In this document: one piece after another, positions 7,005 through 58,533 of the stretch
How the letters are laid out: the number at the start of each line of letters is the position of its first letter
How positions within the stretch are numbered: the first letter of the stretch is position 1
Source: Somniosus microcephalus
Lineage: Eukaryota
Length of the DNA stretch: 64,000 nt
Assembly: GCA_052327205.1 (NCBI GenBank)
Contig: JBMRGM010000038.1
Location: 35,650,001 to 35,714,000, forward strand
Direction of reading: 5' to 3'
Program-made: the position numbers and the translations under genes
The notes under the pieces: model-generated
The model's database searches: none
What the model saw: only the letters and a program-made list of their open reading frames with translations
What the model was told of the DNA's origin: nothing

Positions 7005-7474
7005 TGTAGGGGGTTTCTCTTGCTCGGTCTGGTCTCCTGCCAGGCTTTGTGCAATAATTACCCTTGAGTGGTTCGACCCACTCCCCCTACGGTTCTAGAC
7101 CTTGGACTTAGATGCAGAGAACTGTAGTGCAGAGAAAGGACTCAATAGACCAGGTTGAATAGCACGAAATGGATGCTTTTATTTTGGAACAGTTTGAAGC
7201 ATTACAAAATACATGTCATAGGCACAGATTAAAGTAACTACAATCATGCACAAATTTATGAACTTGACTCTATGGAAATGGGGAGCACACGGCACATCGT
7301 AAAAGGGAAAACACATTACGATTTACCTTAACTCCCTCCCCTATACCTAAACTAAGTTTCGACCTGAGGAACTTGGGATCATGCTCACCACTCAAAATCG
7401 CGAAAAAGGGGGTTCGCAGCCTTTTGGCACCGCTTTCCGTCGTCACATGGATTTGGAAACTTCTGGCGCAGTCG

Positions 7475-7516
<42 letters not shown>

Positions 7517-8578: not shown

Positions 8579-8590
8579 GGCCCCCCTGTG
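8579..8590 (-). other. Polypurine tract (short: CACAGGGGGG-CC abutting the 3' LTR)
   Basis: G6 run 2 nt upstream of the LTR TG on the minus strand. Confidence 0.65.
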
Positions 8591-8966
8591 ATACTGATAG
8601 CTTGCTAGAGGTATCAATAATCCTTGGTGAGCAAATTTTCCCTGATTCCCCACGTCCAAACATTCCTGGCACTTAACTATCTATGACCCTCACGACACAT
8701 GCAGTTTCCATTTCCGAAAAAAACGAAAATTACCTTTTGCCCACTTGGACAATCATAGGCAGCATATCTTAAACTATAACACATTCATCTGTCAGATGTG
8801 CAGGGGTTGATACCTCCTTGCACCACCTGCATACACCTTTTATTAATCAAAAAACTTAAGAATGACTATTAACATAACAATATTCATATCCTTAAAACCA
8901 AAAACAAAACACGCAAATGACCAAAATCTAAAAATGGAGGGACGCTTAACCTTCAATACTAGCAGC

Positions 8967-10673: not shown

Positions 10674-11323
10674 TCAGTGGCGTTTACCGGAATAGGGGAG
10701 TATGGGGCTCCGCACGCTCGAGTGCTCACATCCCATCTCATCCCCTTTCCTTCATCCTGCCACTGCCTCTGGAAGAAGATGGATACGCCCTTGGGGCAAA
10801 CGTGTCTTGAACCCCACATACAGACATATATTCCTTCATCTGGTTCCCACCATTTGTCCCAACACACACGTAATTGTCCGTGAGTCCCCGTAATAGTCCG
10901 ATGGGTATTATTACCCAGTCGCTCCCACTCGACTGTAGAGTTCCTCATGTCTTTTCCCAGCTTTCGCAGCCACCACCATCGCCTTAGTGGTACGTTCCCA
11001 TTACACACCAGACAGATCCTCTTTCCCACGGTAACGCTGACTCTGGGTGCAAGGATCCTCACCCGAGGGCTCGTTAACGAAGTCTCTTGGTAGGCAAAAC
11101 CGAAATTGCTGGAGTATTCCGTAGAATTCGTTCCCAGCCAACCTGGCCATCTCCCCTGGTGGAAGTAGGTGGCGGTTTCCTCAGCCTCTCGCTCCCCTGT
11201 CCCATCCGTTGCGATGGGGGCCGTGTCCCCGGAACACCCGAAGATGATGACGTCCTTGGTGCGGCCTCGGTAGGCCCACCCGCACCCGATCGCCACGAAC
11301 ATGATGAGAATCTTTTTCATCAT
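10625..11323 (-). CDS. Signal peptide + immunoglobulin-like domain ORF; probable N-terminal part of env, separated by a -1 frameshift
   Basis: ATG 11323 (MMKKILIMFVAIGCGWA), 11 nt after a splice-acceptor-like TTTTATTGGTTACAG. Ig motifs VSVTVGKRICLVC / WWWLRK / GQLRV / DEGIYVC. Overlaps the F-like frame at 10673-10625. Confidence 0.7.
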   Translation of the reverse strand: MMKKILIMFVAIGCGWAYRGRTKDVIIFGCSGDTAPIATDGTGEREAEETATYFHQGRWPGWLGTNSTEYSSNFGFAYQETSLTSPRVRILAPRVSVTVGKRICLVCNGNVPLRRWWWLRKLGKDMRNSTVEWERLGNNTHRTITGTHGQLRVCWDKWWEPDEGIYVCMWGSRHVCPKGVSIFFQRQWQDEGKGMRWDVSTRACGAPYSPIPVNATELITRPRKPLPTLPEH

Positions 11324-11514
11324 ATCCCAGGTTTCTGTAACCAATAAAATGATGTAGCCGGGCTCCCAATAGGTGCTGGCCTAATTAAATGGACGCGCGG
11401 GTTCCTGGACCCCGCTCCTAAACAAGCACACGTACCGGGCAGACTACAAAATCGTACTCTTAACATATCTTAACACCGTATACTTTATATTCCTTAAACT
11501 ATCACCATAATTAC

Positions 11515-14500
11515 CTAACTTAACTTATGTACAGCGCCGCCCTCCGTGGGGCGGCCAACTGAATCCCTGTGAGGGCTGTCGCGCGCCACACCCTGCGGTG
11601 GGGCTGCACTGGCCTTCAGCTTTGATCCCCCGCAGCCTGTCGCTGTTGAACGGGAACCATGCCTTCCTGGGGCTGCTCTAAACTGAGGTTGGGAAAAATG
11701 GGGAGAATCTGGCCAAAACTTTCTGGGCTGGGGCGCTCGAGCCGACCTACGAGGGGCTGCTTTGTGTGGGGCTCCCGGGGCTGATGGACCGGGGGTCGGG
11801 ACTGTCACCGTCACAGCCTGTGGTTCCTCCACAGCTGCCGGCTCCAGCTCCCCTCCCTCAGGCTCCGCCCCCTGGGGTCGGGATTTGTGGCTTCCGACTC
11901 CACCTCACCTGTCCCTACAGGTAGTGAGTCTCCGCCCCCATTCCCTACCTCCCCCAAGCTTGAGTCGAGGGCGGGATCGTCGTCCTCTGACTCTTCCCCC
12001 TCCGTGATTGGGTCTAAGGGGAGGTCGAGCTGTTCGGGCTCTTCCTCGTCCGAATCCCAATCCAGAGGGGAGACCTCCCACTCCGATGGGGTGGCCCCTC
12101 CCTTCAAGCAGGCTACTGTTCCAGCCTGTGTGGTCTGTGACTCTGTTACAGGCTGAGGATCTTTGTTCTCAGACCTGGTCCCTTTTGTTGGCCCTTGTGC
12201 ACCCGGTTTAAACAGTTTACACTGGTTAATGTGAAACCATTTGGTACGTCGGGGCACCTTCACTGCATAAACCATGGGGCTGGCCTTGTCTACAATGCTG
12301 TAAGGTCCCATGTACAATGGTTCAAAACTCCCTACCCTGGCGTAGTTTTGGACCATGACCTGGTCTCCGACTACCCACTCTTGTTGCTTACGAGGTTCCA
12401 GTAACAGTCGGTTTCCCCGATGCTGTCTTCCCATGTTCCCAGCCGCCTGCCCATAAATCTGTTTCAGGCGCTCCAAAAGGGTTTGGACGAATTTGTCTCG
12501 TTTCACCTCTCGGAGCTGGCCCTCAGTGAGCACCGGGGCTAGTACATGGGTGGGTGTTCGCATGATCCTTCCAGTCATTAATTCGTGCGGGGAATACCCC
12601 GTACTTTTGGACTGGCTGGCTCGGATCCCCATGAGGACTAAAGGCAGGACCTCCGCCCATTTCTGGGGCGAGCCCATTGTCTCTTTCCTCAGCTTTTCCT
12701 TGAGGGTCCGATTCATGCGTTCAACAATCCCGGATGACTGGGGATTGTATGCTACGTGCCACTTCCCCTCAATGCCCAAGAGCATGAGGGCGTTCTGCAT
12801 TACTTGACCGGTGAACTGACTCCCTTGGTCGGACTCTACAAAACGGGGGAGTCCCCACCGTGAGAACACTTCCCGAATCAAGATCTTAGCAGTGCCCAGT
12901 GCCGTAGCTGTTCTGCACGGGAAGGCTTCTACCCATTTGGTGAACACATCTACCAGGACAAGGCAGTACTTATATCCTCCCTGGGCGGCGGGCAGGGGCC
13001 CTATGTAGTCGACCTGAATCGACTGCCATGCTCCCTCTACCCTCCTGATGTGCCCCATGGGCATCTTCCTTTTGTGGGGGTCTGGGTTGTTTGCAGCGCA
13101 CACAAGACAGCTTGTGCAGAAATCGCGGACATCGTCCCGAAGTCCCGGCCACCATCCCGCCTGCTCTACCCGCTGCCAGGTAACCTCAGGCCCGGGGTGT
13201 CCCGCCCCTGGACCCTCGTGGGCCAGTTGCAGGAATTCCCTCCGGTGCTGCTGCGGCACAACCCACTGCTCCCCTCGGAACAGCATGCCTTCTTTGACTG
13301 AGAGGGCTGCCGTACTGTACGGACCCTCTACCTGCTTGCCTTCTGTGATGGCTTTTAGGACTGTTTTTAGGGCGGGATCCAGGGTTTGGATGGTCTTTAG
13401 GTCTGGGGGCGGTGTCACCCCTGTGTTCCCTGGAATTCCCTCCCTGCCTTGGATCGCCGCCACGGGTCCGGGTTCATAGGGGTCCCAGAGAATGCCATTG
13501 CGGGCACCCTCCCTGGCTAGCGCATCCGCCTGCTGGTTGCCCTGACTGCGGGGTTCTGTGGTGGAATGAGCCTTCACCTTATGGATGAACACCTCCCCTT
13601 CCTCTCCCACAGCTGCCAGGATCTTTTCTAGCAAGGGCTTAACTGTTAAAGGCCGCCCGTCCGCGGAGGTATATCCGCGTCGGGACCAGATGGCGAGGTA
13701 CTCTGTACACGAATTGCATGTGAACATGCTGTCTGAGCAAATCGTGTATGGGGTTGGGAAAATCTCGGGGTGGGTAACCACGTACGCCACCGCGGACAGT
13801 TCAGCCTGCTGTGCGCTCATAGTGCTGGGGAGCTTAATTGCCAGGGCAATGTTTGCCGCAGGGTCATAAACTCCACACCCTGTGAGTCGTTCGCCAGCAG
13901 ATACTGTGCTAGAACCGTCTACGTAGATTTTGCGGCCTGTGGGGTGTATCCCGGCCCGTAAACCTATGTTGACCTCCCATACCCCTTCTACGGAACACCG
14001 ATGGGCTGTCCCGGGATATGCCATGTTGGCTGCGAGCCTTGGCGCGCAGAGGCCTTTAACTTTGAGATCCATCTGGGAAAGGAGGAGGGTCCAGCGCGCA
14101 ATCTGAGTGCTGCTTACGGTCCCATCCTTAATCCTTCCATCCAGAAGCATCTTTGTGGGGGTGTGATGGGTGAGGAGCGTGATGGGAGAGGTTCCTGTGA
14201 AGATCACTGATCTGTTCACAGCCCAATGCGTGGCCAGGAGATGCCGTTCGCAATTGGAGAAACTCCTCTCTACATCCGTGAGCACCCTGGAGGAATAAAC
14301 TACCGGTCTCAGCTTGCCGTGCCGCTCCTGGAGCAACACGGCGCTCAGGCTGTCCCCACTGGCGGCTACCTCAGAACTCCTCTCCCCCATCTATGGCCCC
14401 TAGGGCTGGCGCGGTCTGCAGATCTCTTTTCAACTTCTCGAATGCTGCCTGGCACCCCTCATCCCAAGACCACTCGACTCCCTTGTGTAAGAGTCGAAGT

Positions 14501-15873
14501 AGCGGGGCTGCTGTGGCAGCATAGTCCTCGATGAAATCTCTGCAGCACCCGGTCAAACCCAAAAAGGACCTTACACCCGTTACTGTGTTGGGAATCGGCA
14601 GATCTTGTATTGATTCCCTTCTGGCCTTATCTATGGCTCTTTCCCCAGCGCGGAGGGCCAGACCCAGGAATTTGACTTCCTGCTGGCCGATCTGGGCTTT
14701 CTTCGGGTTTACTTTGAAACCCTTCCTTTCTAACAGTTCCAACAGTTCGGCTAATAGTGGGCCGTGCTCCTCCCTTGTGTCCGTGAACAGGAGTAGGTCG
14801 TCCACATACTGTACTATCTGGTTGGGCTGGCTAAACTCTTTTAAACTCCCCGCCATGCATTGATGGAAAATGCTGGGGCTGTTGTGAAAACCCTGTGGCA
14901 AGCAGTTCCAAGTGTACTGTTGCCCTTTGAAAGTAAAGGCAAACTTGTACTGATCCTCCCGCCGCAGCGGAATGGACCAGAAACCGTTCGAGATGTCCAG
15001 CACCGTGAACGTGGTCGCCGATGCTGGAATACTCCCTATTAGGTCTGCAACTGCTGCTACCGTGGGCGCGCAGGCTGGGATGTTACTATTGAGGACTCTG
15101 TAGTCCACCGTGGCTCTCCACGAATTGTCCGGCTTCTTTACCGGCCATAATGGGGAGTTCACGTGAGTGGCTATTGTTCTCAATACGCCCTGCTGCACCA
15201 ATGAAGATATTGCGGTCTCCATGTCGGGTTCTGCCTCCTTGGGGAAGTTATACTGCTTTTGGGGTCGGATCATGGGGTCCCCGTCTACGCTGACTTCAAA
15301 CCCAGTGACTCTCCCACAGTCGTGCTTGTGGGTGGCAAACGCGGTCAGATTTTCCGACACACACGCCTGCAAGTTCGTTGGGACGTTCGCTACCATGAGC
15401 TCGAGATCGTAACCTCCTGACAGCTTCATGGTGCACAGGGCCCCCTTTTCTTCCTTCCCTGGGATTACGACTACCTTACCTAAACCGCTCTCGGCTCCCC
15501 AGAGACAGTGATTTCTCAGGTCCACGAGGATCCCGTGTTCCACCAAGAAATCAGCCCCGAGGATGCCTTTTCCACCCCCCTCACTCCACTTCAATAGGAT
15601 ACACGTCCATGTGGTGTGGAGTGCTCCCAGATGAATGGAGAGCGGGATGGAGTACGCGCCAGCCTGTTCTCTGCCTGTGAAACCCACTACTAAGTATGGA
15701 GCCTGGGCGGACAGAGGTGAGGCAAAAGGTTTATCTGTGTGGATCACGGTACACGAAGCTCCCGTATCCAACAGGTAACTACCCTTTTGTCTTTCCACCT
15801 CCATCTCCACCACAGGTCTTCTCCAGGCGTCATAGCGGAGCGGACACAGGTAGACGGGCTGCGCAGGCGTCAG
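11515..15873 (-). pseudogene. pol: pol of ERV copy 1 (PR-RT-tether-RNase H-IN), frameshifted
   Basis: LLDTGA; NSPLWPVKK; LPQGFHNSP; YVDD; YVDGSS..SAQQAEL..SDS; H-H-C-C; QVDYIGP/SDQGSQF/GIVERMN; GPY. A 5-nt deletion (TTCTG) at ~14372 relative to copy 2, and a probable second -1 shift near 11870. Confidence 0.9.
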
Positions 15874-17805
15874 TCATTTAGGTGTTTCGGTTGGGGTCTC
15901 GGGAGCGATAGGGCTGTTGGCGACCGCTACCTTCCCCTGCCAGGTCATCAGAGACCGCATAGTCTCCAAGACTGACTCGATCGTAGCGGGATCCACAACC
16001 GCACCACCCCCTGTTGTTGGGGCAGTGGCTACGGTTGGGTTCTGGACTGGTGCTGGGGCAGCGGTCTGGGCTTGGGCTTGGACTGGTGTTGGGACAACGA
16101 TCTGGCCGTGGGCTAGGACTTGGGCTTGGGCTCGGGCTTGGGCTGCGGCGAACGCTCTCTCTCTCTTATCCTTCCATGGATTTCTACAGTCCTTGCGCCA
16201 ATGACCCTCCTTCCCACACCCGTAACAACTGCTGTTGGCTTGGGGAGGGCGATTTCCCTCCTGATGCCATTCCTTTTTAGCAGAAGCTGCGGGCCTCACC
16301 TCATGCACCTTTCCTTTTACAACAGGCGTTTTCCTACCCTTGTTGTTCCTGTAACTGATCGTGAGCTGATCAAGTACTAGTTCCTCCGTGGAGCGGGCGT
16401 TAGTGGGGTCAAACCATGCTTTGGCCTGCTCCCTCACTATTGGCAAGCAACCTGCTACCAGGCACCGAAGCCAATGAGCCCTTTGTTCATCATTTAGCGC
16501 GTTCCGTTCCGGTCCTCCCGGGCAGCTGCGCCGATACACGGGCCACAACCTTCCGGCGAAAACCCGTGGGGGTTCTCCCTCTAGCTGCACTGTCTTTTCT
16601 AAACAGAGGAACGGAGTTCCGTCACCCTCTCCTATAATCTCCAGGATCTCGTCCCGTAACAACTCATAGTCCCTGTGCCCTCTCTTGCTCTCGTCAGGGA
16701 GACACTGGAGGAGCGAGCTGTCCAGGGAGAACAGCAGCATTTTAGACTGTTCAACCCCGTCGCAGTCATTGACTGCTGCGGTCTGCTCCACGTCCCTGAA
16801 ATGCACGGAGGGATCTCCTGACTCGGAGAGTTTTGGGATGTGACTTATCATTGCCCTCAGCTGTTGTGCGCTGTGGGGCATTATGATCTGATTCACAAGG
16901 GGTCCATCATCGCCATTGTCTTCATTCGGACCGAGCCTCCGGTGTCTAGTTGGACACACCGGCGCCGGTCCCGACTCTACTATCTGGTGTTGCTCTACCT
17001 CAAGAATCTCTTCATCTACCGTCTCCGTCTCCTTCCCCGGAGTCCAAGACTCATCATAAGCAGGAGGCGCAGAGGGTTCGGGGGTTGGTTCCCGAACTAT
17101 CTCTTGTGGAATCGGTCTTTTGGATTCCTTGGCTAGCAATAGCTGGCTCGCTGGTGGATTTATGAGACACACCAACCCGTTTGCCTTGGCTAGGGCCATT
17201 CTCAGGTCCTCTTGCTCCCGACGGCAAGTGCTGTGGTCGGTGCTCTCAGATCTATCCTCCATGGCCATCTTATATGCTGCCCTGGCTCCCAGAAGTTTTT
17301 CCTCTTGGGTCTCTATTTGCTTAGCTAGACGGAAACACCTGTCTCTCATTCTACCTTCACTGGCCTTGGCCTCAATGACCTGACATTTTAAATACTCTAC
17401 CCGGGTTTCGTGGCAGCGAGTTGTGGAGTGGCGTTCCTGATTCAGCGCGTTAAGCGATTCAATCAGTTTCTGACCTCCCGCAACCTTTTCCTCTACGTCT
17501 GTAAGCAACCCTTTGATCTGGGCTGTTTGTGCTGCAACGACTTGGTCCAAAAGCTGGACTTGCTTCTTGTAGCACATCAGCCAGACCGCCTTTTCTACAG
17601 ATTTCTTATGCTCTTTACCCTTTGTCCACTTGATGGCTGCGTCTAGCGGGCGCCTATCCCTTAATAGGTCCGATATCCATTGTTTTGTGAGGTTGACTTT
17701 TCCAAAAACATAATCTGCTATTCTTTCATCCATCACATTTCGTTTATTCAGACCTTGATCTAACACACTACTTTCCTGCTGCCAAGGTCCTGCCGCGGTC
17801 GCCAT
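15874..17805 (-). CDS. gag: Gag (643 aa), intact
   Basis: Coiled-coil N-half, overlapping late domains PSAPPAY, capsid-like region, single zinc knuckle CYGCGKEGHWRKDC. Ends in TGA in frame with pol. Confidence 0.9.
   Translation of the reverse strand: MATAAGPWQQESSVLDQGLNKRNVMDERIADYVFGKVNLTKQWISDLLRDRRPLDAAIKWTKGKEHKKSVEKAVWLMCYKKQVQLLDQVVAAQTAQIKGLLTDVEEKVAGGQKLIESLNALNQERHSTTRCHETRVEYLKCQVIEAKASEGRMRDRCFRLAKQIETQEEKLLGARAAYKMAMEDRSESTDHSTCRREQEDLRMALAKANGLVCLINPPASQLLLAKESKRPIPQEIVREPTPEPSAPPAYDESWTPGKETETVDEEILEVEQHQIVESGPAPVCPTRHRRLGPNEDNGDDGPLVNQIIMPHSAQQLRAMISHIPKLSESGDPSVHFRDVEQTAAVNDCDGVEQSKMLLFSLDSSLLQCLPDESKRGHRDYELLRDEILEIIGEGDGTPFLCLEKTVQLEGEPPRVFAGRLWPVYRRSCPGGPERNALNDEQRAHWLRCLVAGCLPIVREQAKAWFDPTNARSTEELVLDQLTISYRNNKGRKTPVVKGKVHEVRPAASAKKEWHQEGNRPPQANSSCYGCGKEGHWRKDCRNPWKDKRERAFAAAQARAQAQVLAHGQIVVPTPVQAQAQTAAPAPVQNPTVATAPTTGGGAVVDPATIESVLETMRSLMTWQGKVAVANSPIAPETPTETPK
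17787..17804 (-). other. Primer-binding site, tRNA-Arg(UCG)
   Basis: TGGCGACCGCGGCAGGAC, 4 nt from the LTR, is complementary to ...GTCCTGCCGCGGTCG-CCA, the vertebrate tRNA-Arg-TCG 3' end as recalled. Confidence 0.8.
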
Positions 17806-17808
17806 TTC

Positions 17809-19369
17809 TGTAGGGGGTTTCTCTTGCTCGTTCTGGTCTCCTGCCAGGCGTTGTGCAATAATTACCCTTGAGTGGTTTGACCCACTCCCCCTATGGTTCT
17901 AGACCTTGGACTTAGATGCAGAGAACTGTAGTGCAGAGAAAGGACTCAATAGACCAGGTTGAATAGCACGAAATGGATGCTTTTATTTTAAACAGTTTGA
18001 AGCATTACAAAATACATGTCATAGGCACAGATTAAAGTAACTACAATCATGCACAAATTTATGAACTTGACTCTATGGAAATGGGGAACACACGGCACAT
18101 CGAAAAAGGGAAAACACATTACGATTACCCTTAACTCCCTCCCCTATACCTAAACTAAGTTTTGACCTGAGGAACTTGGGATCATGCTCACCACTCTCAA
18201 AATCGCGAAAAAGGGGGTTCGCAGCCTTTTGGCACCGCTTTCCGTCGTCACGTGGATTTGGAAACTTCTGGCGCAGTCGATATTCTCTCTCTCTCTCTCT
18301 CTCGAGGCGGCGGGGTAGACACAGCCTCGATGAGCGCTCGTCAAGGTTGAAGATACCTAAGTCTGTTGTCGATTTTTGTTCATGGAGCAGAACAACAACC
18401 CAATGGGATGTTGAGATACGGAAGTGTCAGGCCCGGAATGTCCTTTCTCTCTGGCCTGGATCGTCGGTTTTCCTGAGGGTGTCTTCTCCTTCGGCCTGGG
18501 TCATCGATGATCTCCCGACCCCAGTACCCGGGCCACCCTCGTCGTCTTCTCGTCGTGGCCGAGCCTTGTCTGGCTGAACACCGACCACGTTGTCTTTTCA
18601 CCGAAATTGTCCGTCCGAAGCGTCTTTAAAAAGACGAAGCGTCTTCATCGATTCCGAAGCTACCGAGGTAGAAGAGGCGCCGATCCTGGATCGGTGTAAC
18701 CGTCACCGTCCGTCCTTCATTCGTCCGCTCGTTCCGTCGATGACTCCAATCGTTCTCCGATTCACTCCGTAACTTTTGATGGACTTTCAATCCATAGTTA
18801 TACTCTTTTGGGACAGTCTTATCTCCCGCCAAATCATAGTCCTGTCTTTGTATTAATTTTGGCGGGCAGAAATCTCCGCAGGGGCGCTTTGTCTTGTAAC
18901 GGGAGCCGGTGATAACTTAACTGGCCTTCCTGGCCGATAATGTCTTTTAATGTCTTTTACATTGTCATCGCGACTCGGTTCGCATATTGATCGGTCCGGA
19001 GATTTTCCTTGATGGCTGTTAAACGGTTTCTCCTTTGTACAATAAATGGGTATGAGTGTTTTTGCATTGTCCGCCCATATCTTGATGGGCCCCATCCTGT
19101 ACTTAGAATCCATTGAATATGTATGCTGTTTCCCTGAGTTTCGGTTTCCCGATACTGGCTTTCGCGGGCTTACTGTCTTCAATCCACAAGCCTGTCTGGC
19201 TTGCAGTAACAGAAATCAAACGGTCCAGAAAACTGATCACGAGGCCCGGCGGCCATTTTGTATGCCCTTTTATCAAAGGTTTTTCTGTGCAAGCTTACTT
19301 TGGTCAATAAACTGTCTTATTTTATCCTGTTTTCTTGCGTGATTATTGCTGAAAATTTCGAATCTTACA
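17809..19369 (-). repeat. 5' LTR of ERV copy 1 (1561 bp)
   Basis: Highly similar to 7005-8578 except a non-homologous ~115-nt block (~18355-18470) and (CT)n length. Confidence 0.95.
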
Positions 19370-20620
19370 CAAGCAAACCCTGCGCAACAACTTGTGATTA
19401 ATAAAGTGGTGAAATTAGCAAATCTGTAATGGTTATTGCTTGCATTTGGTCATTGATCAAGGCTGGGGATTTGCATTCTGAATACAGGAAGTTTTCCATA
19501 TTTATTTACTTCCATTAATGATTCTTGACCCAGTGGCATGCCTACTGAGTGTATTTAATCTTTTCACCAGATATCAGGCTACTGGGGTATGTGCCCCATT
19601 TCACTAGTTTATTAACAGCAACTTGGAAGTGTTTGCCTGGAGCGAGTTATCTTGGCCTGCTGTTTGTCCCTTGTTAAGGAGGTTTGTGGGGCTCTTGTGG
19701 AGTGAGGTTAGTGGGACTGATTATTGAGCCCCATGAAATTGCAACGTTCTGGAAATTTTAATGCTGGGATTAGTTTATTACTAGAAGTGGAGGTTCTTTA
19801 GTCCTCTATAACTGACTGGGATAATAAGTCTACATGGGGTAGATATCCATATTCTAAAAATGATAGCGGCACTAGCGAGGGTGCAAAAAACATTTACTAG
19901 GATGATTCCAGAACTGAGATTATTCTTATTAGGAAAGATTGACCTGTTTGGGATGCCTTCTTTAGGAAAGAGAAGGCTGAGGGTGTTTAAAATTATGACT
20001 GGGTTCGATGGGTTAGATATCGAGATGTTTCCACTTGGGGGCAAGACCAGAACTAGGGGCCTGTAACTACAAGGTAGTAACTAACTAATGACTCCAATGG
20101 TGAATTCAGGAGAAACTTCTTTACCCAGAGAGTGGTGAGAATGTGGATCTCGCTATCACGGAGTGGTTGAGGCGAATGGTGTAGCTGCATTTAAGGGGGA
20201 GCTCTAAGCATGAGGGAGGAAGGATATGCTGTTTGGGTGAGATGAAGGGTGGGAGGAGGCTCGTGTGGAGCATGGACTAGTTGGACTGAATAGCCTGTTT
20301 CTGTGCTGTCGATGGCTTGTTAACCTGCAGGATTAGTCACCTGAGGAACTGCATCTCTGAAGGCCCCTTCAATGGCTTTCGGTGTTGGCCGTGGCTCAGT
20401 GGACAGCGCTCTAGCCTGAGTCGGAAGGTCGTAGGTTCAAATCCCACTATAGAAACCTTGAGTACAAAAGCCAGGCTGACACTCCCAGTGCTGCACTGTC
20501 GGAGGTGCCATCTTTCGGATGAGAAGTTAAACCGAGGCCACTTCTGGCCCCTCGGGTGGATGTAAAAGATCCTGTGGCACTTTTGGAAGAAGAGCAGGGG
20601 AGTTCTTCCCTCTGACCAAT
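19370..20620 (+). repeat. Orphan 3' end of another ZP3 unit (last codons, polyA signal, downstream flank); paralogous to 5757-7004
   Basis: Starts CAAGCAAACCCTGCGCAACAACTTGTGATTAATAAA and aligns with 5757-7004 with scattered substitutions and indels. Confidence 0.9.
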
Positions 20621-20750: not shown

Positions 20751-22856
20751 CATTTTTTAATTTGTTCATGGAGTGTGGGTGTCACTGGCAAGGCCTGCAT
20801 TTATTGCCCATCCCTAGTTAGCCTTGAGAATGTGGTGGTGAGCTGCCTTCTAGTCCAGTTGGTCAGTGTGCTGTTGGAGAGTTCCAGGATTTTGACCCAG
20901 TGACGATGAAGGATCGACGATATACTTGCAAGTCGGGATGGTGTGTGACTTGGAGGTGGTGGTGTTCCCATATGCCTGCTGCCCTTGTCCTTCTAGGTGG
21001 TAGAGGTCGCGGGTTTGGGAGGTGCTGCCGAAGAAGCCTTGGCGAGATGCTGCAGTGCGCCAGTGCTGGAGGGAGTGAATGTTTAAGGTGTTGGTGTGAC
21101 ATCCTGAATCTGGGTATGGCGCTGTATAAATAAGATTGTTCTTTCTAAACATCTGACGTGAGTTTGGGACCTACAATAAAATATAATTATCCCTAACCAA
21201 CATACTAGGTCCCCAATAGGGATTCAGTTGCCGTACTGGATCTCCAACAGCAGGTGGGGATAGAATCCATATCAACTTAACGAGCACAGTTTTGTATCTC
21301 TTGTGGCTGACCCTGGTCAGTGAATGCTGGCTGAAATCTGCAGTAGAACTGTTGTCAATACTTAACCACTTACATTTATGTAGCCCCTTCAACGTACTGA
21401 AATGTCCCAAGGTGCTTCACAGAAGCCCTATTGAATAAAATTTGACACCAAGCCACATACGGAGATATTAGGGCAGATGACCAAAAGCTTGTGCAAGAGG
21501 TAGGTTTTAAGGAGGAGGGAGTGCTGGAGAGGTTTAGGGAGGGAATTCCAGAGTTTGGGGCCCAGGCAGCTGAAGGCAAGGCTGCCAATGGTGGAGCGAT
21601 TACATAGAAACATAGAAGATAGGAGTAGGCCGCTTGAGCCTGCTCTGCCATTCAATGCGATCATGGCTGATCATCCAAATTCAGTACCCGATCCCTGCTA
21701 TCTCCCCATAACCCCTTGATCCCTTTAGCCTTAAGAAATGTATCCAACTCCTTCTTGAATATATCTAATGAATTGGCCTCTGCTGCCTTCTGTGGTAGAG
21801 AACTCCACAGGTTCACCACGCTGTGGGTGAAGAAATTCCTCCTTCAGCGACTGGTGCACAAGGTCACCCAGGTCTCGTTGCACTTCCCCTTCTCCCAATC
21901 TATTGCCATTCAGATAATCTGCCTTCCTGGTTTTGCCACCAAGTGGATAACCTCACATTTATCCACGTTATATTGCTTCTGCCCAATCACCCAACCTGTA
22001 AATCATCCTGTAGTTTCTCGGCATCCTCCTCACAGCACACACGCCCACCCAGCTTTGTGTCGTCTGCAAATTTAGAGATATTGCATCAATTCCCTTGTCT
22101 AGATCATTAATATATATATTGTGAATAGCTGGGGTCCAAGGACCGATCCCTGCGGTACCCCACTAGTCACTGCCTTCCACTCAGAAAAAGACCCGTTTAT
22201 TCCAACTCTTTGCTTTCTATCTGCCAACCAGTTCTCTATCCAAGTCAGTACCTTGCCCCCAATCCCATGTGCCCTAACTTTACATACAAATCTCTTATGT
22301 GGGACCTTAATCGAAAGCCTTCTGAAAGTCCAAATACACCACATCCACTGTGTTAAGTATGTGTATTGTATTGAACAATTAACACAAAGACTTAAACGTA
22401 TAACTCAAACAAGTCTTTACTGGTTGGAGGTAGGGACTATACTGAATACAAGATTACTGCACAGTGCTTATATACCGATGTGTTCACCCCCGGTATTACG
22501 TCTACAGCAGCCTGAGAAAGTAGTACATCTCTTAAGGTGGAACAGGCTTAAGCTCTCTTAAGGTGGAACAGGTTACATACACAACACTCCTCCCTTCTTA
22601 GCTTTATAGTCATCCCCCCATTTAACATAACGTAATAACATATATACATATATAACTTCATGTTTAACGTAACATATCACAGATTCAGTCTCTGCGGAAA
22701 ACAGTTCACAGATTCAATCTCTGTGGTGTAGTCGGTTCACGTTACTCATTCAATAGTCCTTTCATGGATTTAACAGCTTGAACTTCCGAACTGATTTGGC
22801 TCCGTTCGGAGGGACCACGTGTGTGATCTGGTAGAGGTGATAATGGTTCAGATGGG

Positions 22857-25172
22857 TCATCTTCTGTTTTTACTTTTCCTTTTCTGCTTCTTGGAGACTC
22901 TCTGGGCTCCATTGTCAGCTGCCACAGCTGCCAGCTGCATGCGCAGTTCCTCCTTCTCTTCCTCCTGTTTCCGTCGTAGAGCCAGCTTCTCCCGATGTTC
23001 CGTAGACTTTTGGTGCTCCTCCATGATTTCTGCACTTTGGGAGTCGAAGTTACAAGCTGGGCAGGACAGGGCATCGTAATATTCGGTGTCGTCCACCAGG
23101 TCATGGTAATATTCGGTGTCGTCCTGAACTAGACCAGTGAGAGGGTCGTCTATTTCCTCCATACCCAGCTGGACGTTAGCCAGCTCTTGTTCCAAATCCA
23201 GACATCTTTCCTGAAGAGACTTCTTCATGTGTACCTCTGCATCCAGCTTTTTCTGGGCTTTCAGCAAATCGTTTACTAGTGACCTCATTTGTGATTTTAA
23301 TACTTCAACTTCCTTTGGAGATTGATTGATCGGACTATGCAATCCCTCTACCCGAGCGGCTGTTTCAGCGGTCTGTTGTTCTACATTGACGTGAGTCAGC
23401 GTACTTTTGGCATCCAATGGCTGCTCTGTTGCAGTCGTTTCAGTCTGTGTCGTCACATCAGCCATCTCAATGACTTTTGAGAGCTCCGAACCCTTTTCCT
23501 TTGAAGATCGCAGCTCGTGTTCAAGTTTTTCCCATTTCAGAGTCTTGTCCCTCAGCATATGAAGGAGTTGGCTGACCGTTAACTCTTCTGACACCAGATT
23601 ATGGCACGCACCTTCAGAACCTGAATCAGCTTTGATTCATTCGGCCTCCTCGCGCAGATGGTTGGTGTGCTCCTGCTCCATTTTCTCCATCAGTTGCTTC
23701 TGTTGCCTTTCCAGATTCTCCCACTCTGTAACAAAGAACTTTTTTATTTCATTCATCTCTTGCTCAAAACGGCGAATCATTTGTTCTAATTGCTGTTGTA
23801 GTTTGAAATGGAGTTGAGTTCGAGCCCAGTGTCCCTCAAAAATGTGCATATCAGTAGACTTGACAGACTCAGAATTCTCTGTTAAACTATGTTGTTGTTG
23901 CTCAGTGGAATTCTGTGCTGAAACTTTGTCTTTTGCACATGGGTTGGTCTTACCATCATCAGTTCTAGAGTCTGGGCTGATTATCTGCACCGAGTTCTCA
24001 CTCTTTATGGCTTTTAGTGAATGCCAGTCCATATTTATGTTTCTAAACCACTCCCGGCCTAGTAGTGGTGGACCTCCCTCCGGTAGCACATATAAGTCCA
24101 TTATTTGACTTCCTTCGCCCTTGTTGGCCACTGCAACCTTTATTGTCCCGATGGGGTACACTCTCTGCCCCGTGTAGGTTGTCAATATAATCTCCGTATC
24201 CTGTAGGGGAATATGTTGGAATAACCTTCTGTAATCTTTCTTATTCATGACCGACAATGCCGATCCAGTGTCCAATTCCATTTTTACTTGGACTCCTTCT
24301 ATCTGAAGAGTAACCCAAATTGTCTGGAGGTCTGCACCCTTACCAACGTTGAGTACCCTTAAGCTAGCCAGTTCAATACTGCTTAAGCCAGCCAGTTCAT
24401 TACTGCTAGCGTCTGAATCGGACTCCTGTTCGGCCACCTTGTGTACCTTTGCGTATTTCCCTTGCGGTGACTTCTTGTTGCTGGTCTTCTTCCCTGACCT
24501 GCATACTCTAGCTATGTGTCCAAGCTTACCACATGTTCTGCATTCTTGGTTTTTAAACCAACACTGGTTCTGATCATGCGTTGTCTTTCCACAACGATAA
24601 CATTTAACAGAACTCACACCCAATTTGTGTGCACTGAGCTCCGGTGACCGTAGCTGCATTACTGCCGTGCCTCTCGCTGCGGCTTCGTGTGCTGCTGCCA
24701 TAGTGACCGCCTTCTCAAGCGTCAGCTCATTCTCCTCGAGCAGTCGCTTTTGTGTATCCTGTTTAAATAAACCACACACAAATTTGTCTCGTAGTGCATC
24801 TGTCAGTCCCATTCCAAACTGGCACTATTTCGCTAATTTACGCAATTCCAGCAAATATTCAGCATTGCTTTCATGCTGTAGCTGCCTTCTGTCGTAAAAT
24901 TTAAATCGTTCCGCTAGCATCAGCGGCGTGGGGTTTAGATGATCTTTCAGGACAGTAACAATCTCATCGAACGTCTTACCCGCCGGTTCATCTGGTGATA
25001 ACAGGTGTTTCAATTGCCCGTATGTCTTCGCACCCATTAAATTTAATAATGTTAGAGCTTTATCTTGGTCACGAATTTTATTGGCCTTACAATAATTTTT
25101 TACTCTTTCAACATATATGGCCCAATCTTCGAGGTCACTATCAAAGGTGCTAATATTCCCGTGTTTAGGCAT
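22857..25172 (-). pseudogene. Gag-protease fused in frame to STK10/SLK-, optineurin- and DNAJC21-like segments (771 codons, two in-frame stops)
   Basis: ORFs 24825-25172, 23637-24812 and 22857-23594 share one frame (TAG 24825-27, TGA 23637-39). Mag-type Gag ([24 protein letters not shown]), two CCHC knuckles, ELDTGS..LLGREW protease, then coiled coils and a C-x2-C-x12-H-x5-H finger. Confidence 0.8.
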
Positions 25173-25309
25173 TGTAGATTTGCAATTTCTCAGATTTTAT
25201 TTTCTTTACTTGTTATCAAAGATGGCGGCTTCCCGCTCTTGCCGTCGTCCTCCGCCCACAAAATGGCGGTTTTCCCGCGCTTGGCGGTCTTCATCCGTCC
25301 CCCGACGCC

Positions 25310-25660
25310 GTCTCCCTTCAGCCCCCGAGTGCGGCCCTTATCTTCGCCGCGATCGCCCGAGTGCGGCCCTTATCAGCGGATGCAATCGATGGCCCGGCTG
25401 CGCCTCGCACTTGAAAGCGGCCCGGCCCTTATCAGTGCTTGCGATCGATGGCCCGGCTGCGCCTCGCACTCCAAAGCCCTTATCTCCCGATCGCGATCAA
25501 TGGCCCGCGCTGTGCACCGCGGCTCTCGCGCCTTCAATTTCTGCAGCCGCTGCCCTTTCAGCACGAGTGCGGCCCTTATCGGTGGTTGCGATCGATGGCC
25601 CGGCTGCGCCCCTCACTTCAAAGCGGCCCGGCCCTTATCTGCCTATCGCTATCGCCCTGT
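25310..25660. repeat. GC-rich ~59-bp imperfect tandem repeats in the Gypsy 5' leader
   Basis: Recurrent GGCCCTTATC...GCGATCGATGGCCCGGCTGCGCC units. Confidence 0.8.
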
Positions 25661-27244
25661 ACCTGTCTTCCCCAGCCCTATCTTCTACTCCGGTTCACAA
25701 GCTGATGGAGGCTTCAGGGTCCTAATGCCTGTTGCTTCCATTGGGGTGGTGAGAGGTGAGGTTTGAAACCTCTCTTCAACCGCCGTGGAATAACTGCCGC
25801 AGGGTAAGAACCTGACTCATCGCCAGTGTTAAGTATGTGTATTGTATTGAACAATTAACACAAAGACTTAAACGTATAACTCAAACAGGTCTTTACTGGT
25901 TGGAGGTAGGGACTATACTGAATACAAGATTACTGCACAGTGCTTATATACCGATGCGTTCACCGCCGGTATTACGTCTACAGCAGCCTGAGAAAGTAGT
26001 ACATCTCTTAAGGTGGAACAGGCTTAAGCTCTCTTAAGGTGGAACAGGTTACATACACAACACACTGGTTCTCCCTTATCTATTTTACTAGTGACATCCT
26101 CAAAAAATTCCAGTAGATTAGTCGAGCACGATTTACCTTTTGTAAATCCATGTTGACTTTGTCCGATCCTGTCTCTGTTTTCCAAGTGCTCTGCTATTAC
26201 ATCTTTTATAATGGACTCTAGCACTTTCCCCACTACCGATGTCAGGCTCACCGAGACCTGTAATTCCCCGTTTTCTCTCTACCACCTTTTTTGAATAGTG
26301 GGGTAACATTAGCTACCCTTCAATCCATGGGTACTGTTCCAGAGTCCATCGAATGTTGGAAGATGATCAGCAATGCATCTACTATTTCTAGGGCCACTTC
26401 CTTAATTACGTTAGGATGTAGATTATCAGGCCCTGGGGATTTATCGGCCTTCAATCCCATCAATTTCCCTAACACCATTTCCCTACAAATACTGATTTCT
26501 TTCAGTTCCTCCCTTTCATCGGACACTATGTTCCCCGACATTTCTGGGAGGTTATTTGTGTCCCCCTTTGTGAAGACAGAACCAAAATATGTATTTAATT
26601 GGTCTGCTATTTCTTTGTTCCCCATTATAAATTCCCCAGTTGGGGATGCTCAAGAGGCCAAAATTGAAGGAGCGCAGAGCTTGCGGAGGGTTGTGGGGCT
26701 GGAGGAGGTTGGAGGGATTTCAAAACAACGATGAGAATTTTAAAAATCAAGGCGTTGCTTAACCGGGAATCAATGTAGTTCAGCGATGGGTGAATGGGAC
26801 TTGGTGTGAGTTAGGATACGGGCAGCTGAGTTTTGGACGGCCTCAAGTAAATGGCGGGTAGTGCGTGGAAGGTCAGCATTGGAATAGTCGAGACTACAGG
26901 CGAATAGAGATGTGGCAGTCAGTCTCACCTGGGTTTAGTGAGTGTCTACACAAAGCCTCATACACAACATACAAAAAGTTGATGTGCATTCACACTGAAG
27001 TCTTCCAATAAATATGTATAATCACAGAAGTGCTTGTTTGAGTAAACCAGTTAACATTTTATACACAGCCAGCACACCTCGCCTCACCCCCTAAACAGCT
27101 GCCATCAAAGCCCAGTTGCTGTATTATTTTGTGGGTCTGTGCTCGGGTTAGCAGCCCTCCAGGATTGTCCCAGAGTCTCCAGGAATTAAAAGATTCATCT
27201 CTGGGAGCCTGGCACGTCCTGAGTTCATGATAGGTGCGGTATTC

Positions 27245-30594: not shown

Positions 30595-31685
30595 GCTCTA
30601 CGCTGTCCCATCAAACACTCCCAGGGCAGCAAGAGTACGGGTTAGATACAGAGTAAAGCTCCATCTACACTGTCTCATCAATCACTCCCAGCGCAGGTAC
30701 AGCATAAGTTAGATACTGTTGTGTCCCCTTGTGTTTTTATTACTATGTAATACAGACACTTTTAACTCCTTTTTAGTTTACAGCTTTTACTCAGTGCTTT
30801 CATGATGTTGCTGCCGCATGGTGCGGAGTGATACAAGATGTCCGACCTTGCACTGTGCACTGCCTGACACAGTGTGCCACATAGCAGTATAAATGCACTA
30901 ACCAAAGTAGTTCCATATAACAATGTAACAAGTAGTTCCATTGAATAATGTGATAATATAACGATGTAACAGATACAGGTTACAGCATGAGTTAGATACA
31001 GAGTAAAGCTCCCTCTACACTGTCCCATCAAGCACTCCCAGTGCAGCTACAGCGCGGGTTAGATACAGAATAAAGCTCCCTTTACAATGTCACGTCAAAA
31101 TCTCCCAGGGCAGGTACAGCACGGGTTAGATATAGAGTAACGCTCCCTCTACACTGTCACTTCAAACAGTCCCAGGACACGCACAGCATGGGTTAGATAC
31201 AGAGTAAAGCTCCCTCTGCACTGTCCCATGAAACACTCCCAGGGCAGGTACAGCACGGTTAGATACAGAGTAAAGCTCCCTCTACACTGTCCCATCAAAT
31301 ACTCCCAGGACAGGTACAGCACGGGTCAGATACAGAGTAAAGCTCCCTTTAAACTGTCCCATCAAACACTCCCAGGGCAGGTACAGCATAGGTTAGATAC
31401 AGAGTAAAGCTCCCTTTAGACTGTCGCATCAAACTCTCCCATGGCAGATACAGCATGAGTTAGATACAGAGTAAAGCTCCCTCTACACTACCCCATCAAA
31501 CACTCCCAAGGCAGGTACAGCACGGGTTAGACACAGAGTAAAGCTCTCTTTACAATGTCCCATCAAACTACTCCCAGGGCAGGTACAGCACGGGTTAGAT
31601 GGAGAGTAAAGCTCCCTCTACACTGTCGCATCAAACACTCCCAGGGCAGGTAGAGCACGGGTTAGATACACAGTAAAGCTCCCTG
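30595..31685. repeat. 67-bp minisatellite array interrupted by a solo LTR
   Basis: Same unit as 318-826. Confidence 0.9.
30717..30971 (-). mobile_element. Solo LTR (255 bp), TSD GATAC
   Basis: TGTT...AACA termini, GATAC at 30712-30716 and 30972-30976; empty site at 581-585 in unit A. Confidence 0.8.
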
Positions 31686-33382
31686 TGCTCTGCGCAAAAA
31701 AGGTCCCAAATCCCAACCTCAGAGGATCAGACCCTATTAACCACCTCCCTCAGATTTCATGTTCCCACAGCTCGGCCATTTGTGGATCCTCCCCTTCCTT
31801 CACTCCACCATTGGCACCTTGGGATGTTTTTCTGCATTAAAGGTGCGATATGATGACAAGTTGGTGTTGTTGTTCCAGTGTGACAGTCTCCATTTACCAT
31901 CACACTCTTTATCAGACTGTATGAAACAGGACAATTGCAATTAGAGTGACTTTGCCTCTATTAGGGGGTTTTAATTGGATAGACTGTTTCCCCCTCGTGA
32001 TGTCCTTTTATTAATCAGCAGGGACGGGGGAGCTTGTCCAGTGGGTGAAGCTCAGGCCCACACTGATCATCTATAAGGGGTCCTCCCCACAAGGGACAGG
32101 ACACCACTAACAAGAACAAAGAGCCTGTCCGAACTAATGTCCCACAGTACACATCAACTGATTAAGGTCCAACTTTCCGATCCGGTTCAATGAGGCAATG
32201 ATCCCGTCCGGATCCAGCCACTTGTAGAAGCTTCTGGAAAACCCATTGGACTCCGAGTGTTTGCACGCCAGGCTCCCTGGAGAGGGAGCGGGCAATGCCC
32301 ACCGGTACACTCGAGGCCTCCCGCAACCGATGGGCACCGCAGGGAGTGGAGAGTCTTATCGACACGAGTAACATAATTATGATTTACTTTTATGAGTTTC
32401 CTGTTGTTTTGTCGAAAGAACATTCTGTGTTTGAGTTCCTTTGTTAGTTGTGCCAACTTAAAGAGGGAGGCCAGGTATAAATTCGTTCCTCTGTTGATGA
32501 CACCGGGACAACCCATGTCATTTTATGGCTCAATTAAAGAAATCCACATTAGACATAGGAACATGGGAACAGGAGGAGGCCATTCAGCCTCTCGAGCCTG
32601 TCGCCTCATTCAATGAGATCATGGCTGATCTGGGACCTAACTCCATATACCCGCCTTTGGCCCATATCCCTTAATACCTTTGGGTATCAAAAATCTATCA
32701 ATCTCAGATTTAAAATTAACAATTGACCCAGCAACAACTGCCGTTAGCGGAAGAGAGTTCCAAACCTCTCCCACCCTTTGTGTGTAGAAGTGTTTCCTAA
32801 CTTCACTTCTGAAAGATCTGGCTCTAATTTTTAGGCTATGTCCCCTTGTCCTGAACTCCCAACCAGCGGAATTAGTTTGTCTCTGTGTACCCTATCGGTT
32901 CCCCTTAATATCTGGAAAACTTCAATCAAATCACCCCTTAACTTTCTAAATTCCGAGCTTCTCACCATTGGGAAAGTACGCTGATCTATCCTTTTTAGAT
33001 CCAAAGTGGATGACTACTGTATTAATGGTGCCCATCAAAATGTGCCCTTGTGCGACTCTTTCAGGTGGGGGTGATTGACCAAATTGTAATAGGCCCTCCT
33101 GGCAATAAATCCATCAGTTCTGTCTTTCTTTTCCTTTTTTTATTATTTTTTTTTCTTTTTTTTCAAGTTTTATTTCAAGTTTTATTAATTTACAGTTGAT
33201 TAGTTTAATCAAAAGAGCACCCCTAATTGGTCGAATGTTTTCTTAAGTTACAGTCAATTGCTTTAATCAAAAAGAGCAGCCAAATTTTAAATTAATTTGT
33301 TAAGGTTCCTTTAAAGTTTTATTTATAAACTAATTGGTTAATCACCCACACAAAAAAGATTACTGTAGATTTGCTTAACCAC

Positions 33383-33520
33383 CCAATCAAAAGGGTCACT
33401 CCGATTGGTTGAATTAAAATAGGCCCTCCTGGCAATAAATCCATGAGTTCTGTGATTGGGTAGAAATTGTGGAGCTTGGGGTTAATCGGCTCAATGTGAC
33501 TGCAGGTTGTGTGTATAAAA
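33383..33520 (+). promoter_or_regulatory. ZP3 copy B promoter (CCAAT boxes, TATAAAA 33514-33520)
   Basis: CCAAT 33383, ATTGG 33404 and 33455, TATA about 50 nt before the ATG. Confidence 0.65.
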
Positions 33521-33564
33521 GGTGCTTGTTGATGGGTGCAGGGATAGTTGAGTTGTTTAGTATC

Positions 33565-36408
33565 ATGGGGGATTTTGTAGTGAGGGGTTTGCTCCCAGTG
33601 CTGGTGTTAGTTGGAGCTGTTTGTTCCTCTGATATTTGGCAACAGTTTGGGGGCCAGAGGTTTCCATGGAGAAGAGTAAAAGCCACCCCTGGGCCTCAGC
33701 GAGTCCCTTCTCCTGGGTCTCCCTTTGGCTCCGGTTTCAGTGTGTCTGAGGGGCGCAGTGTGTCTCCACTGCAGACTGTGAGGGTGCAGTGTGGAGAGCA
33801 CAACCTGCTGGTCAGGGTACAGATGGATTTATTTGGAACCAGGCACCTGATTAAAGCTGCTGACCTGACCCTGGGGACGGCAGGTTGTCCGTCAACTGGG
33901 ATCTACTCTCAGAACCACACTGTCCTCTTTGACTATGGGCTGCATGAGTGTGGCAGCAGAGTGAAGGTAATGTGATTCCTCAACTCTTGCTCTAAGCTTG
34001 GTGTCTGGAATAGACCCAACTTGTTTTTCCTACCCTGATTCCTGTCTCCTGCTTTTAAAACCTCCAGACTTGTGTTGAATTATGTATTGTCCTTTGCTTT
34101 AACTGGTTTTCCTGAGTGTCTCCAACTTTGATCTCGGCCTTATTGGCCTTGATCCTTCACTTAGTTCTTAACTTTTCCTTCCTTACATCCTGTCTTGTGG
34201 ATTTTCAGGTCACTGGGGGTTTAGTTATCTACAATATTGAGTTTTTTTTCTTCCACTCCTTTGTATCAGAATACAGGGGAGTCTGGCTTAAATGAGGCTT
34301 TAATCTTGTTCTATTCATTGCTCTAAATTATCAACCTGTGGCTCCTTTTATTGAAGTGAAGCTGTCCTTTCATTGAATCTTTATTCTGTTTAATTGTCTT
34401 GTGCTTGCAATCCCCCTCCTTGCTTTAGCTGCTGAGGCTGCACAACTTCCAACCACCTGAGTAGAATGTTGTCCATTTCTGAACCTGATGTCTTTCAGAT
34501 GTCTGGAGATTTCCTGGTCTACGCCACCCACCTGAACCACACCCCCAAGGCCCATGGATCTGTCATTGTGAGAACTAATGGAGCTGTCGTTCCCATTGAG
34601 TGCCACTATTTTAGGTAAGATTCTTTACACTGTCGCAAATAACGTCTACAGCTGGTGTAGTTCTCTGACCTTGTCCTAAAATGGCTCCGTTGTCTTTCCA
34701 GGAAGGGCAATGTGAGCAGTAACCCGATCAAGCCCACCTGGATCCCGTTCAGCTCCACCAAGTCTGCAGAGGGGCTTCTGTCATTCTCTCTGCGCCTAAT
34801 GAACGGTATGTGATGGGTGGATGTGGAATGATTTCCTGTAGTCACCCATTGGCAGTTGTACCCAGTCTCCAACCCTTGTCCCTCTTGTACTTCAGATGAC
34901 TGGCTCACAGAGCGCACCTCGACTGTCTACTACCTGGGTGACCTCATTCACATTGAGGCCTCTGTTTCAATGACCAACCACATGCCCCTGAAGCTCTACA
35001 TTGATCGCTGTGTCGCTACGTTGAGCCCAGACGAGGACTCCGCCCCGAGATACAGCATCATTGACTACAATGGGTAAGGAGCACTCTGCTTTCTCCAGCT
35101 GATCCTGTCTCAATGGCTTCGCTTGATTCACTCCATGTCCCTTTCTTAAAATTATTTCTTCAGTTGCCTCCTGGACAGCAAAGCTGAGGACTCCTTCTCA
35201 ACCTTCGTGTTGCCAAGAGACGAGCGTGAGCTGGACAAGCTCCACTTTGACTTGGATGCCTTCCGCTTCTTTGGCGATGATCGTTCCTTGGTAAGAGGAA
35301 GCCGACCGCTGCAAAGTATTTACAGCCAATCTGCATAACTGGGTTGTGCTCCACATGAGTGTCCTCCCACTCCTCTTCATCTAACTCTTCAACATATCCT
35401 TCTATTCCTTTCTCCCACCTGTGTTTATCTAGCTTCCCCTTAAATGAATCTACACTATTCGCCTCAACCACTCCCTGTGGTAGCGAGTTCCACATTCTCC
35501 CCACTCTCTGGGTAAAGAAGTTTCTCCTGAAATCCCTCTGCTGTATATCCTGTGATCCTATGAATCACTAACATTAACCACTTTTCTCTGTTTCTAGCCA
35601 GCTTGCTATCCATTCTGCTACTTGTCCCCTGAATCCACCTGTTCATTGAGTTCCCAAGTTGGGAGGGAGTCACTATATAATGACTTGTGTTGACTGTGTC
35701 CCTCAGATTTTCATCTCCTGTCACCTGAAGGTTGCTGCAGTGGATCGGAGAGATTCCATGAGCAAAGCTTGTACTTTCCAGAAGATGCAGAATGTGTAAG
35801 TGCCCCCTCTCCCTCAGGGATGTGTTGTGTGGGGAAGTGATGCCCAACCTGATTGTGAAACTGATTCTCTTGTTTAGCTGGGCTCCATTGGAAGTATCCA
35901 ACAATGACGTTTGTGCCTGTTGTCACTTGGGCAACTGCAGTGCCACAAGGGAGTTTGGATTTGATTCCAGAGGAAGGAGGGATCTTGTACCTGAAGCTGG
36001 TAGGACATTGATTCTCTAGATGTTGGAGGTTGCCCTTTACCCTCTCTAACTGGAATGTTTGATATTGCAGGGAGTGATGCTGAATTGAAGTGGGAGGGTG
36101 AGGCCTCCCTTGGACCCCTGGTCATTCTGGACACTGATGTGACAGACCTGGCAACCGAGTCCCTTAATGAGGTTGAGCAACGGATGGCGGAGAGGTCTCC
36201 AGGTGGTGAGTTGGCCGACTGCTAGTTTCCATTTCCCCCTCAGTATTCCCTTCACTCACTGTTGGTTTCTCATTGCTGTTTAGGTGCGGAGTCTGAGGTG
36301 GTCCTGATGGTGGCCCTGACTGTGACTGCTGTCTCTCTGATCTCTGCTTCGTTGATCGCCTTGTTCCTGTACAGGAAACGCAAGCAAACCCTGCGCAACA
36401 ACTTGTGA
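33565..36408 (+). CDS. zp3: ZP3 copy B, 9 exons, 465 aa, intact
   Basis: Exons 33565-33966, 34499-34614, 34702-34805, 34896-35073, 35164-35290, 35707-35795, 35878-35999, 36071-36205, 36284-36408; same lengths and phases as copy A. Confidence 0.95.
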
Positions 36409-58530: not shown

Positions 58531-58533
58531 GAA

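Follow-up and report, generated by a model that had tools for sequence, protein, structure and literature searches.

How did the coiled-coil part of a host kinase come to lie, without introns, inside a mobile element, and what does the order of its exons say about the RNA it was copied from? We addressed this question in a 64,000-nucleotide stretch of the Somniosus microcephalus genome (contig JBMRGM010000038.1, positions 35,650,001 to 35,714,000 of the forward strand; hereafter the window), where a preliminary description had pointed to a captured segment of the kinase STK10 or SLK. The segment belongs to a non-autonomous Ty3/Gypsy element. We hold with considerable confidence that a founder Gypsy element replaced its reverse transcriptase (RT)-RNase H-integrase region with one turn of back-spliced STK10 exons 8-12, likely through the RT switching onto a co-packaged circular RNA.

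STK10 exons in permuted order

The peptide quoted in the preliminary description corresponds exactly to window positions 23625-23837 and lies on the minus strand, which that description had not given. A Pfam search detected the PKK domain (PF12474) at E 6.5e-12 with 46.2 bits, the cut-off being 25 bits, the top protein database matches were shark STK10 (78-84% identity), and nucleotide alignment to the host resolved exon 11 (95%) joined without an intron to exon 12 (87%); exon numbers are our own, counted over coding exons. These results bear out that a mobile element carries a non-catalytic coiled-coil segment captured in spliced form; the nucleotide match to host STK10 exons identifies STK10 as its source. 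The limits first assigned to it were too narrow: STK10 sequence is also found at 24004-23827 and 22865-22745, and the stop codon noted there (23637-23639) is followed by optineurin in the same frame. Beyond what had been described, the segment is the remnant of a circularly permuted capture of exons 8-12, one of five host cargos in a family whose copies exceed 5,000 in number.

The element is 3.7 kb long, lies on the minus strand at window positions 22351-26062 and is inserted in the remnant of a long interspersed nuclear element (LINE). Its features, in window coordinates, are as follows:

22346-22350 (left) and 26063-26067 (right): 5-bp target-site duplication (TSD); the target is the LINE remnant
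25827-26062, minus strand: 5' long terminal repeat (LTR), 236 nt, TG...CA
25809-25826, minus strand: putative primer-binding-site-like sequence, directly after the 5' LTR
24315-25172, minus strand: Gag, which contains two zinc knuckles and, in the window copy, a stop codon at 24825-24827
24005-24314, minus strand: aspartic protease (Pfam PF13975, PF13650), in frame with Gag and cargo
23827-24004, minus strand: STK10 coding exon 9 in two pieces, with an internal in-frame deletion; 94% and 90% to host exon 9
23626-23837, minus strand: part of STK10 exon 11 spliced to part of exon 12 (PKK segment); stop codon at 23637-23639 in the window copy
23152-23634, minus strand: optineurin, five spliced host exons or exon parts, colinear and in frame; 76-94% per exon
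22866-23151, minus strand: DNAJC21-derived zinc-finger segment; the reading frame ends at 22857-22859
22745-22865, minus strand: end of STK10 exon 8 spliced to the start of exon 9, beyond the stop; 93%, 89% and 86% to host
22587-22602, minus strand: polypurine tract
22351-22586, minus strand: 3' LTR, 236 nt

The cargo thus runs from exon 9 parts through exon 11, exon 12, five optineurin exons and DNAJC21 to exon 8 and the start of exon 9, which places STK10 exons 8-9 after exons 11-12, and every cargo junction is intronless when aligned to the host genes. The paired TG...CA LTRs, the target-site duplication, the primer-binding-site-like sequence and the polypurine tract are those of a Gypsy LTR element, while a Pfam domain scan detected no RT, RNase H or integrase; the protease match falls slightly below cut-off in the window copy and above it in relatives. 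The element may belong to the Mag clade of Gypsy, as its two zinc knuckles and 5-bp TSD would suggest, a label for which a literature search yielded no usable definition. Its LTRs show 3 differences over 236 nt, and RNA reads join both flanks of the empty repeat. No tRNA genes were found in the 64-kb window. Another copy (L040, C38:36.11 Mb) is identical in kind to the window copy in both element and flanks, and is a segmental duplicate, not a new insertion.

Founder copies and the parent element

The host STK10 gene is located at C8:167.17-167.28 Mb. Searching the genome with full STK10 retrieved copies in which amino acids (aa) 376-704 are followed by aa 290-389. In a founder-type copy (L031), part of exon 9 and exons 10, 11 and 12 are followed by exon 8 and part of exon 9, at 98.7-100% identity to the host, and the 12|8 join falls exactly at the GT donor of host exon 12 and the AG acceptor of exon 8. 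Exons 8-12 sum to 1,245 nt, in frame and stop-free, and the insert spans 1,256 nt between its flanking motifs (1,245 + 11) in 10 of 13 founder-type copies, the remaining three having a changed flanking motif. An 11-nt motif is repeated at both ends of the insert, which therefore equals one turn of the circle plus the motif. The exact back-splice junction motif (exon 12|8) occurs 844 times in the genome and the exact spliced exon 8|9 junction motif 5,219 times, with no occurrence of the reversed-pattern controls in either case; as exact pattern counts, both figures are lower bounds. A separate intronless STK10 retrocopy (L078, C3:354658271-354658948) covers aa 753-977 at 97%, is open, and lies directly behind LINE sequence.

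A pattern ending at the left crossover gave 20 genome matches, and 16 loci were read. After the 11-nt motif, nine of them run on into pol and seven are STK10-type variants; an element without any insert ('empty site') was not among the 16. Across the seven parent loci examined, the length is 5.3-5.7 kb where both LTRs were found, and protease, RT, RNase H and integrase lie in one frame in three. Both parents that were scanned have these domains in that order and no env, as expected of a related autonomous element whose domains are missing from the derivative. At the left crossover, parent and STK10 exon 9 share the 11-nt motif, which is the only exact match of at least 11 nt between the STK10 circle and the parental protease-integrase region; at the right crossover, 7 of 8 letters of the integrase tail in two parents agree with this STK10 motif. 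Between these points the insert replaces 2,650 nt of the parent, its RT-RNase H-integrase region, so that spliced host RNA stands in place of an internal open reading frame (ORF) with microsimilarity at the switch points, the signature of an LTR-mediated retrocopy. Parent, both crossovers and STK10 founder coexist in the Somniosus microcephalus genome.

Other host cargos

Family members carry parts of five host genes: STK10, optineurin, DNAJC21, an ANKRD24-like gene and a TBC-domain gene. Exact donor-to-upstream-acceptor joins were found for three of the five (STK10, ANKRD24-like and the TBC gene), all in relatives of the window copy; these three have a back-splice junction at true splice sites, which distinguishes high-confidence retrocopies of circular RNAs (circRNAs). 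The ANKRD24/ankycorbin-like piece, carried by sister subfamilies, joins the donor of a late 66-nt exon to the acceptor of a large upstream exon (6 loci of 7 tried). One family member with this cargo (L170-L171, C13:62867070-62870608) is located in the ANKRD24-like gene itself, where it occupies an intron that separates exons of the presumed circle.

The TBC-gene cargo, a 164-residue coiled coil nested within the ANKRD24-like piece, is present in 3 of 40 copies of an unbiased sample (the first 40 listed exon 8|9 junction sites, a stretch of C1). Its source gene lies at C3:347.97-348.01 Mb, with upstream RabGAP-TBC exons (5 of 75 frames matched). The insert opens with 20 nt from the end of the last captured exon, which are joined to an acceptor that lies 45 kb upstream, and its start and end overlap by 4 nt; it amounts to a second full turn, later shortened by internal deletion. 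The source gene is probably EVI5. Human circEVI5 is in print, and the available passages of PMC8342614 do not give its exons.

For optineurin, the host gene is at C17:85.87-85.91 Mb, the segment of the window copy is 69% identical to shark optineurin, and the C-terminal domains were not captured. This cargo is colinear; it begins about 8 nt into one exon and stops about 4 nt short of the end of another, limits that would be compatible with a near-complete turn without proving it. The DNAJC21 segment of a less decayed relative (L135) is 59-71% identical to named DNAJC21 proteins. Its zinc-finger source exon was not found in the 190 kb after the first four DNAJC21 exons (C1:2.65-2.68 Mb), a splice-site pattern search for the source gave no match, and the genome protein search was swamped by element copies. 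A PF21884 locus on C17 was rejected as the source: the segment is not there, and the locus resembles what is presumably a DNAJC2-type gene. In L135 (3855-4115, minus strand), the first nine residues of the piece resemble the stretch after the zinc finger in shark DNAJC21 (P0362), which hints at a possible fourth permuted capture. Searches of PDB and Atlas put no name on the cargos.

Family size, subfamilies and transcription

The 40-copy sample comprises 24 window-like copies, 8 with optineurin and DNAJC21, 5 with STK10 only, and 3 with the ANKRD24-like piece plus TBC. Both LTRs were found in 36 of the 40, the LTR pairs being 97.7-100% alike, and dispersed family copies have their own TSDs. 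A tree built from the Gag-protease of 37 single copies, rooted at its midpoint and without a clade test, forms a ladder from parent and STK10-only copies through optineurin, DNAJC21 and ANKRD24-like to TBC types. Derived subfamilies differ by up to ~20% from the parent in Gag-protease, and STK10-only copies are within ~1% of the host gene. Because this drift reaches ~20% and yet the LTR pairs are near-identical in all subfamilies, the cargo-rich lineages appear to cycle much faster.

RNA reads cover the whole element in two raw RNA runs that match the species label and do not come from the sequenced individual. In run X20 the first mates map mainly to the plus strand, which in most stranded libraries indicates the sense strand of the element. 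Runs labelled as three organisms contain 0.5-0.7 of the words of the window element, so the window subfamily is probably common to close species.

Reading frame and cargo sequence

The frame is open from the Gag start to its natural end in 25 of the 40 unbiased copies. The stop at 23637-23639 was present in 38 of 39 fetched top matches because the query itself carried it; among unbiased copies with the site it occurs in 3 of 24, spread over three subfamilies and without linked variants, and it is missing from 124 of 145 and from 151 of 151 RNA reads. We therefore rejected it as a family trait or read-through signal, and the two stops of the window copy are sporadic decay.

Single-site changes, counted against a mutation model, gave an amino-acid change ratio of 0.20-0.43 for Gag-protease (P<=0.01, 6 of 6 copies) and of 0.39-0.92 for the cargo (6 copies, not independent), the latter being 0.55-0.9 in older subfamilies. 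Strong selection on the cargo, suggested by uncorrected NG86 ratios near 0.4, was weakened to 0.55-0.9 once transition bias was modelled. The reading frame is kept, and the cargo residues largely drift nearly neutrally.

Neighbouring features

Two inverted endogenous retrovirus-like copies, 92% alike, occupy window positions 7005-19371 (minus strand) and 57004-64000 (plus strand). They have long LTR-like repeats, a zinc-knuckle gag separated by a stop from pro-pol, RT, integrase and two RNase H matches, and further long frames at 8967-11380 have no Pfam match. ZP-N domain exons at 2831-3331 and 33439-33975, and a putative third at 46582-47118, lie in a 13-30 kb segmental repeat whose three copies are 94-97% alike and appear to form a tandem zona-pellucida-type gene array. 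A 985-aa open LINE ORF2 (endonuclease and RT) at 52321-55278 (plus strand) is followed by a 49-bp tandem array, and 67-bp tandem arrays are located at 251-953, 30933-31736 and 44052-44863.

Proposed mechanism and alternatives

The anatomy, the parent, both crossovers, three exact donor-to-upstream-acceptor joins, the copy numbers and the transcription are direct observations. Because the STK10, ANKRD24-like and TBC parts are joined end to start exactly at splice sites, they were likely copied from circular RNAs. We propose that RT would switch at short microhomologies onto co-packaged STK10 circular RNA and then back, and that copying would end after about one turn as the enzyme returned to the entry microhomology and/or because RNase H had already cut the template there. 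The enzyme may have entered at the integrase tail and left after one turn, or the circle may have been inserted at one site and RT-integrase deleted later; either route requires a circular or tandemly repeated template. The parent would supply RT and integrase in trans and so amplify the derivatives, as suggested by their dispersal, their own TSDs and their closely matching LTR pairs, and the optineurin, DNAJC21, ANKRD24-like and TBC-gene pieces would have been added in that order by the same switching. A broader reading, for which we find the case evenly balanced, is that circular RNAs are the preferred cargo of LTR-element capture: a Gypsy lineage would have copied about one turn repeatedly, nested in frame and amplified thousands-fold, with the STK10 and TBC genes at exactly one turn, DNAJC21 possibly so, and optineurin as one turn of a six-exon circle less ~12 nt.

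Linear RNAs with repeated exons, arising by trans-splicing or tandem exon duplication, would likewise join a donor to an upstream acceptor and contain two copies of the entry motif, and sequence alone cannot separate them from circles; however, STK10 exons 8-12 each occur once in the 110 kb of host gene read, the event would be needed separately in three unrelated genes, and circles are the established common source of such joins (PMC4897178), which makes linear templates improbable. We give similarly little credence to circles having become DNA or processed copies by another route, such as LINE activity, and recombined into Gypsy later. The intronless STK10 3' retrocopy beside LINE sequence at C3:354.66 Mb demonstrates that LINE-type copying of STK10 RNA occurs, but its aa 753-977 lie outside the circle, and the inserts are without poly(A), all in sense and in frame, and share microhomology with the recipient at both ends, as in the LTR template switching described in the available part of PMC5131818. 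Finally, exon ends share AG or CAG, and reverse transcriptases can produce false circle junctions, according to the accessible part of bioRxiv 10.1101/259556, so an enzyme jumping within linear mRNA at such microhomologies could have mimicked back-splicing. Yet the normal upstream exon end and the STK10 donor exon end have only 2 nt in common while the circle contains 130 AG, the other junctions of the family use 4-11 nt mid-exon, all three permuted joins are exact at both splice sites, and a one-turn insert would take four switches; such jumping is exceedingly unlikely.

As to what the cargo does, the frame is kept while the residues largely are not, and the cargo is therefore most likely in-frame filler, under little amino-acid selection, by which translation of the Gag-protease transcript can still run through to the end. 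A cargo selected as protein, whether it stays on Gag as a coiled-coil tail or is released by the protease, could aid particle assembly or interfere with host partners, for instance in optineurin-dependent autophagy. Each of the five cargos is in frame and for the most part coiled-coil or charged, copies with cargo are abundant, the cargo is transcribed and it shows some excess of silent changes; against this, its pieces are freely deleted and swapped, its ratio in older subfamilies contrasts with that of Gag-protease, and the C-terminal domains of optineurin are missing, so we consider a protein role rather unlikely.

Several observations weigh against the capture of circular RNAs as in-frame filler. 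The back-splice join is missing from the window copy itself, since the optineurin and DNAJC21 captures deleted or replaced the exact junction; optineurin and DNAJC21, two of the five cargos, lack back-splice evidence; and in the copies read the ANKRD24-like insert falls well short of a full turn. No inverted repeats were detected between STK10 introns 7 and 12 at E<1e-5. The window type stands alone on a long branch of the Gag-protease tree, apart from its cargo relatives, so the order of events in this subfamily probably involves recombination. The excess of silent changes in the cargo has P 0.003-0.07 at transition bias 2 and is mostly not significant at 8, and a weak protein role may exist. 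STK10, ANKRD24-like and TBC circles remain the likely templates, although their junction reads are indistinguishable from element transcripts.

Comparison with known systems

Transducing retroviruses carry gag-onc fusions in which pol is replaced by spliced host sequence, and they are replication-defective and helper-dependent. The pol of the shark element is likewise replaced by spliced host sequence fused to gag; unlike these viruses, it is a Gypsy element without env, and its cargo is non-catalytic, permuted and weakly constrained.

LTR-element gene capture and circRNA-derived pseudogenes have each been published already. The cases of LTR-mediated retroposition described by Tan et al. 2016 (PMC5131818), among them the four-gene 'Super' retrocopy of mouse and Bs1 of maize, resemble the shark family in several respects: spliced host RNA takes the place of an internal ORF, the switch points show microhomology, both LTRs are retained, further rounds proceed as non-autonomous elements, and there are multi-gene chimeras. 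They differ in having few copies (Bs1 1-5), whereas the shark captures are serial, with a ladder of co-active subfamilies and thousands of copies; the word 'circular' is absent from the main text of that paper. The available part of Dong et al. 2016 (PMC4897178) describes 33 high-confidence, LTR-associated circRFWD2 copies in mouse, calls the mechanism mysterious and gives the LTR link as an enrichment. Like the shark inserts, these copies have a non-colinear exon-exon join, no poly(A) and LTR sequence in their flanks; in the shark, by contrast, one can see the parent element, the two crossovers and the length of one turn, the captures involve three genes, the inserts are in frame with Gag-protease, and there are 844 (join intact) to 5,219 copies. 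Under the classes given there, the window copy alone, with circle exons in permuted order, would be low-confidence, and the founder, by its exact back-splice junction, high-confidence. Neither this family nor an LTR element that captures circles serially was described in the literature we searched, which mostly excluded subscription papers and did not include repeat databases; nor were parent, both crossovers and repeated circle capture at such scale, and the supplements of PMC4897178 and PMC5131818 may hold closer cases.

Significance

The paper in which such copies were found (PMC4897178) did not settle how circular RNAs come to be reverse transcribed into genomes, and the shark family points to how they are written back and multiplied. 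Having donor gene, parent, both crossovers and products together in one genome, and this three times over, yields a testable rule, the same entry and exit point on the circle, and a means of searching genomes for ancient circRNAs of the germline. Caution is also called for in sharks, where hundreds of genomic back-splice junctions can swamp both circRNA calls and gene models. If the broader reading is true, LTR elements would preserve germline circRNAs as a fossil record and would serve as machinery for shuffling exons by way of circles.
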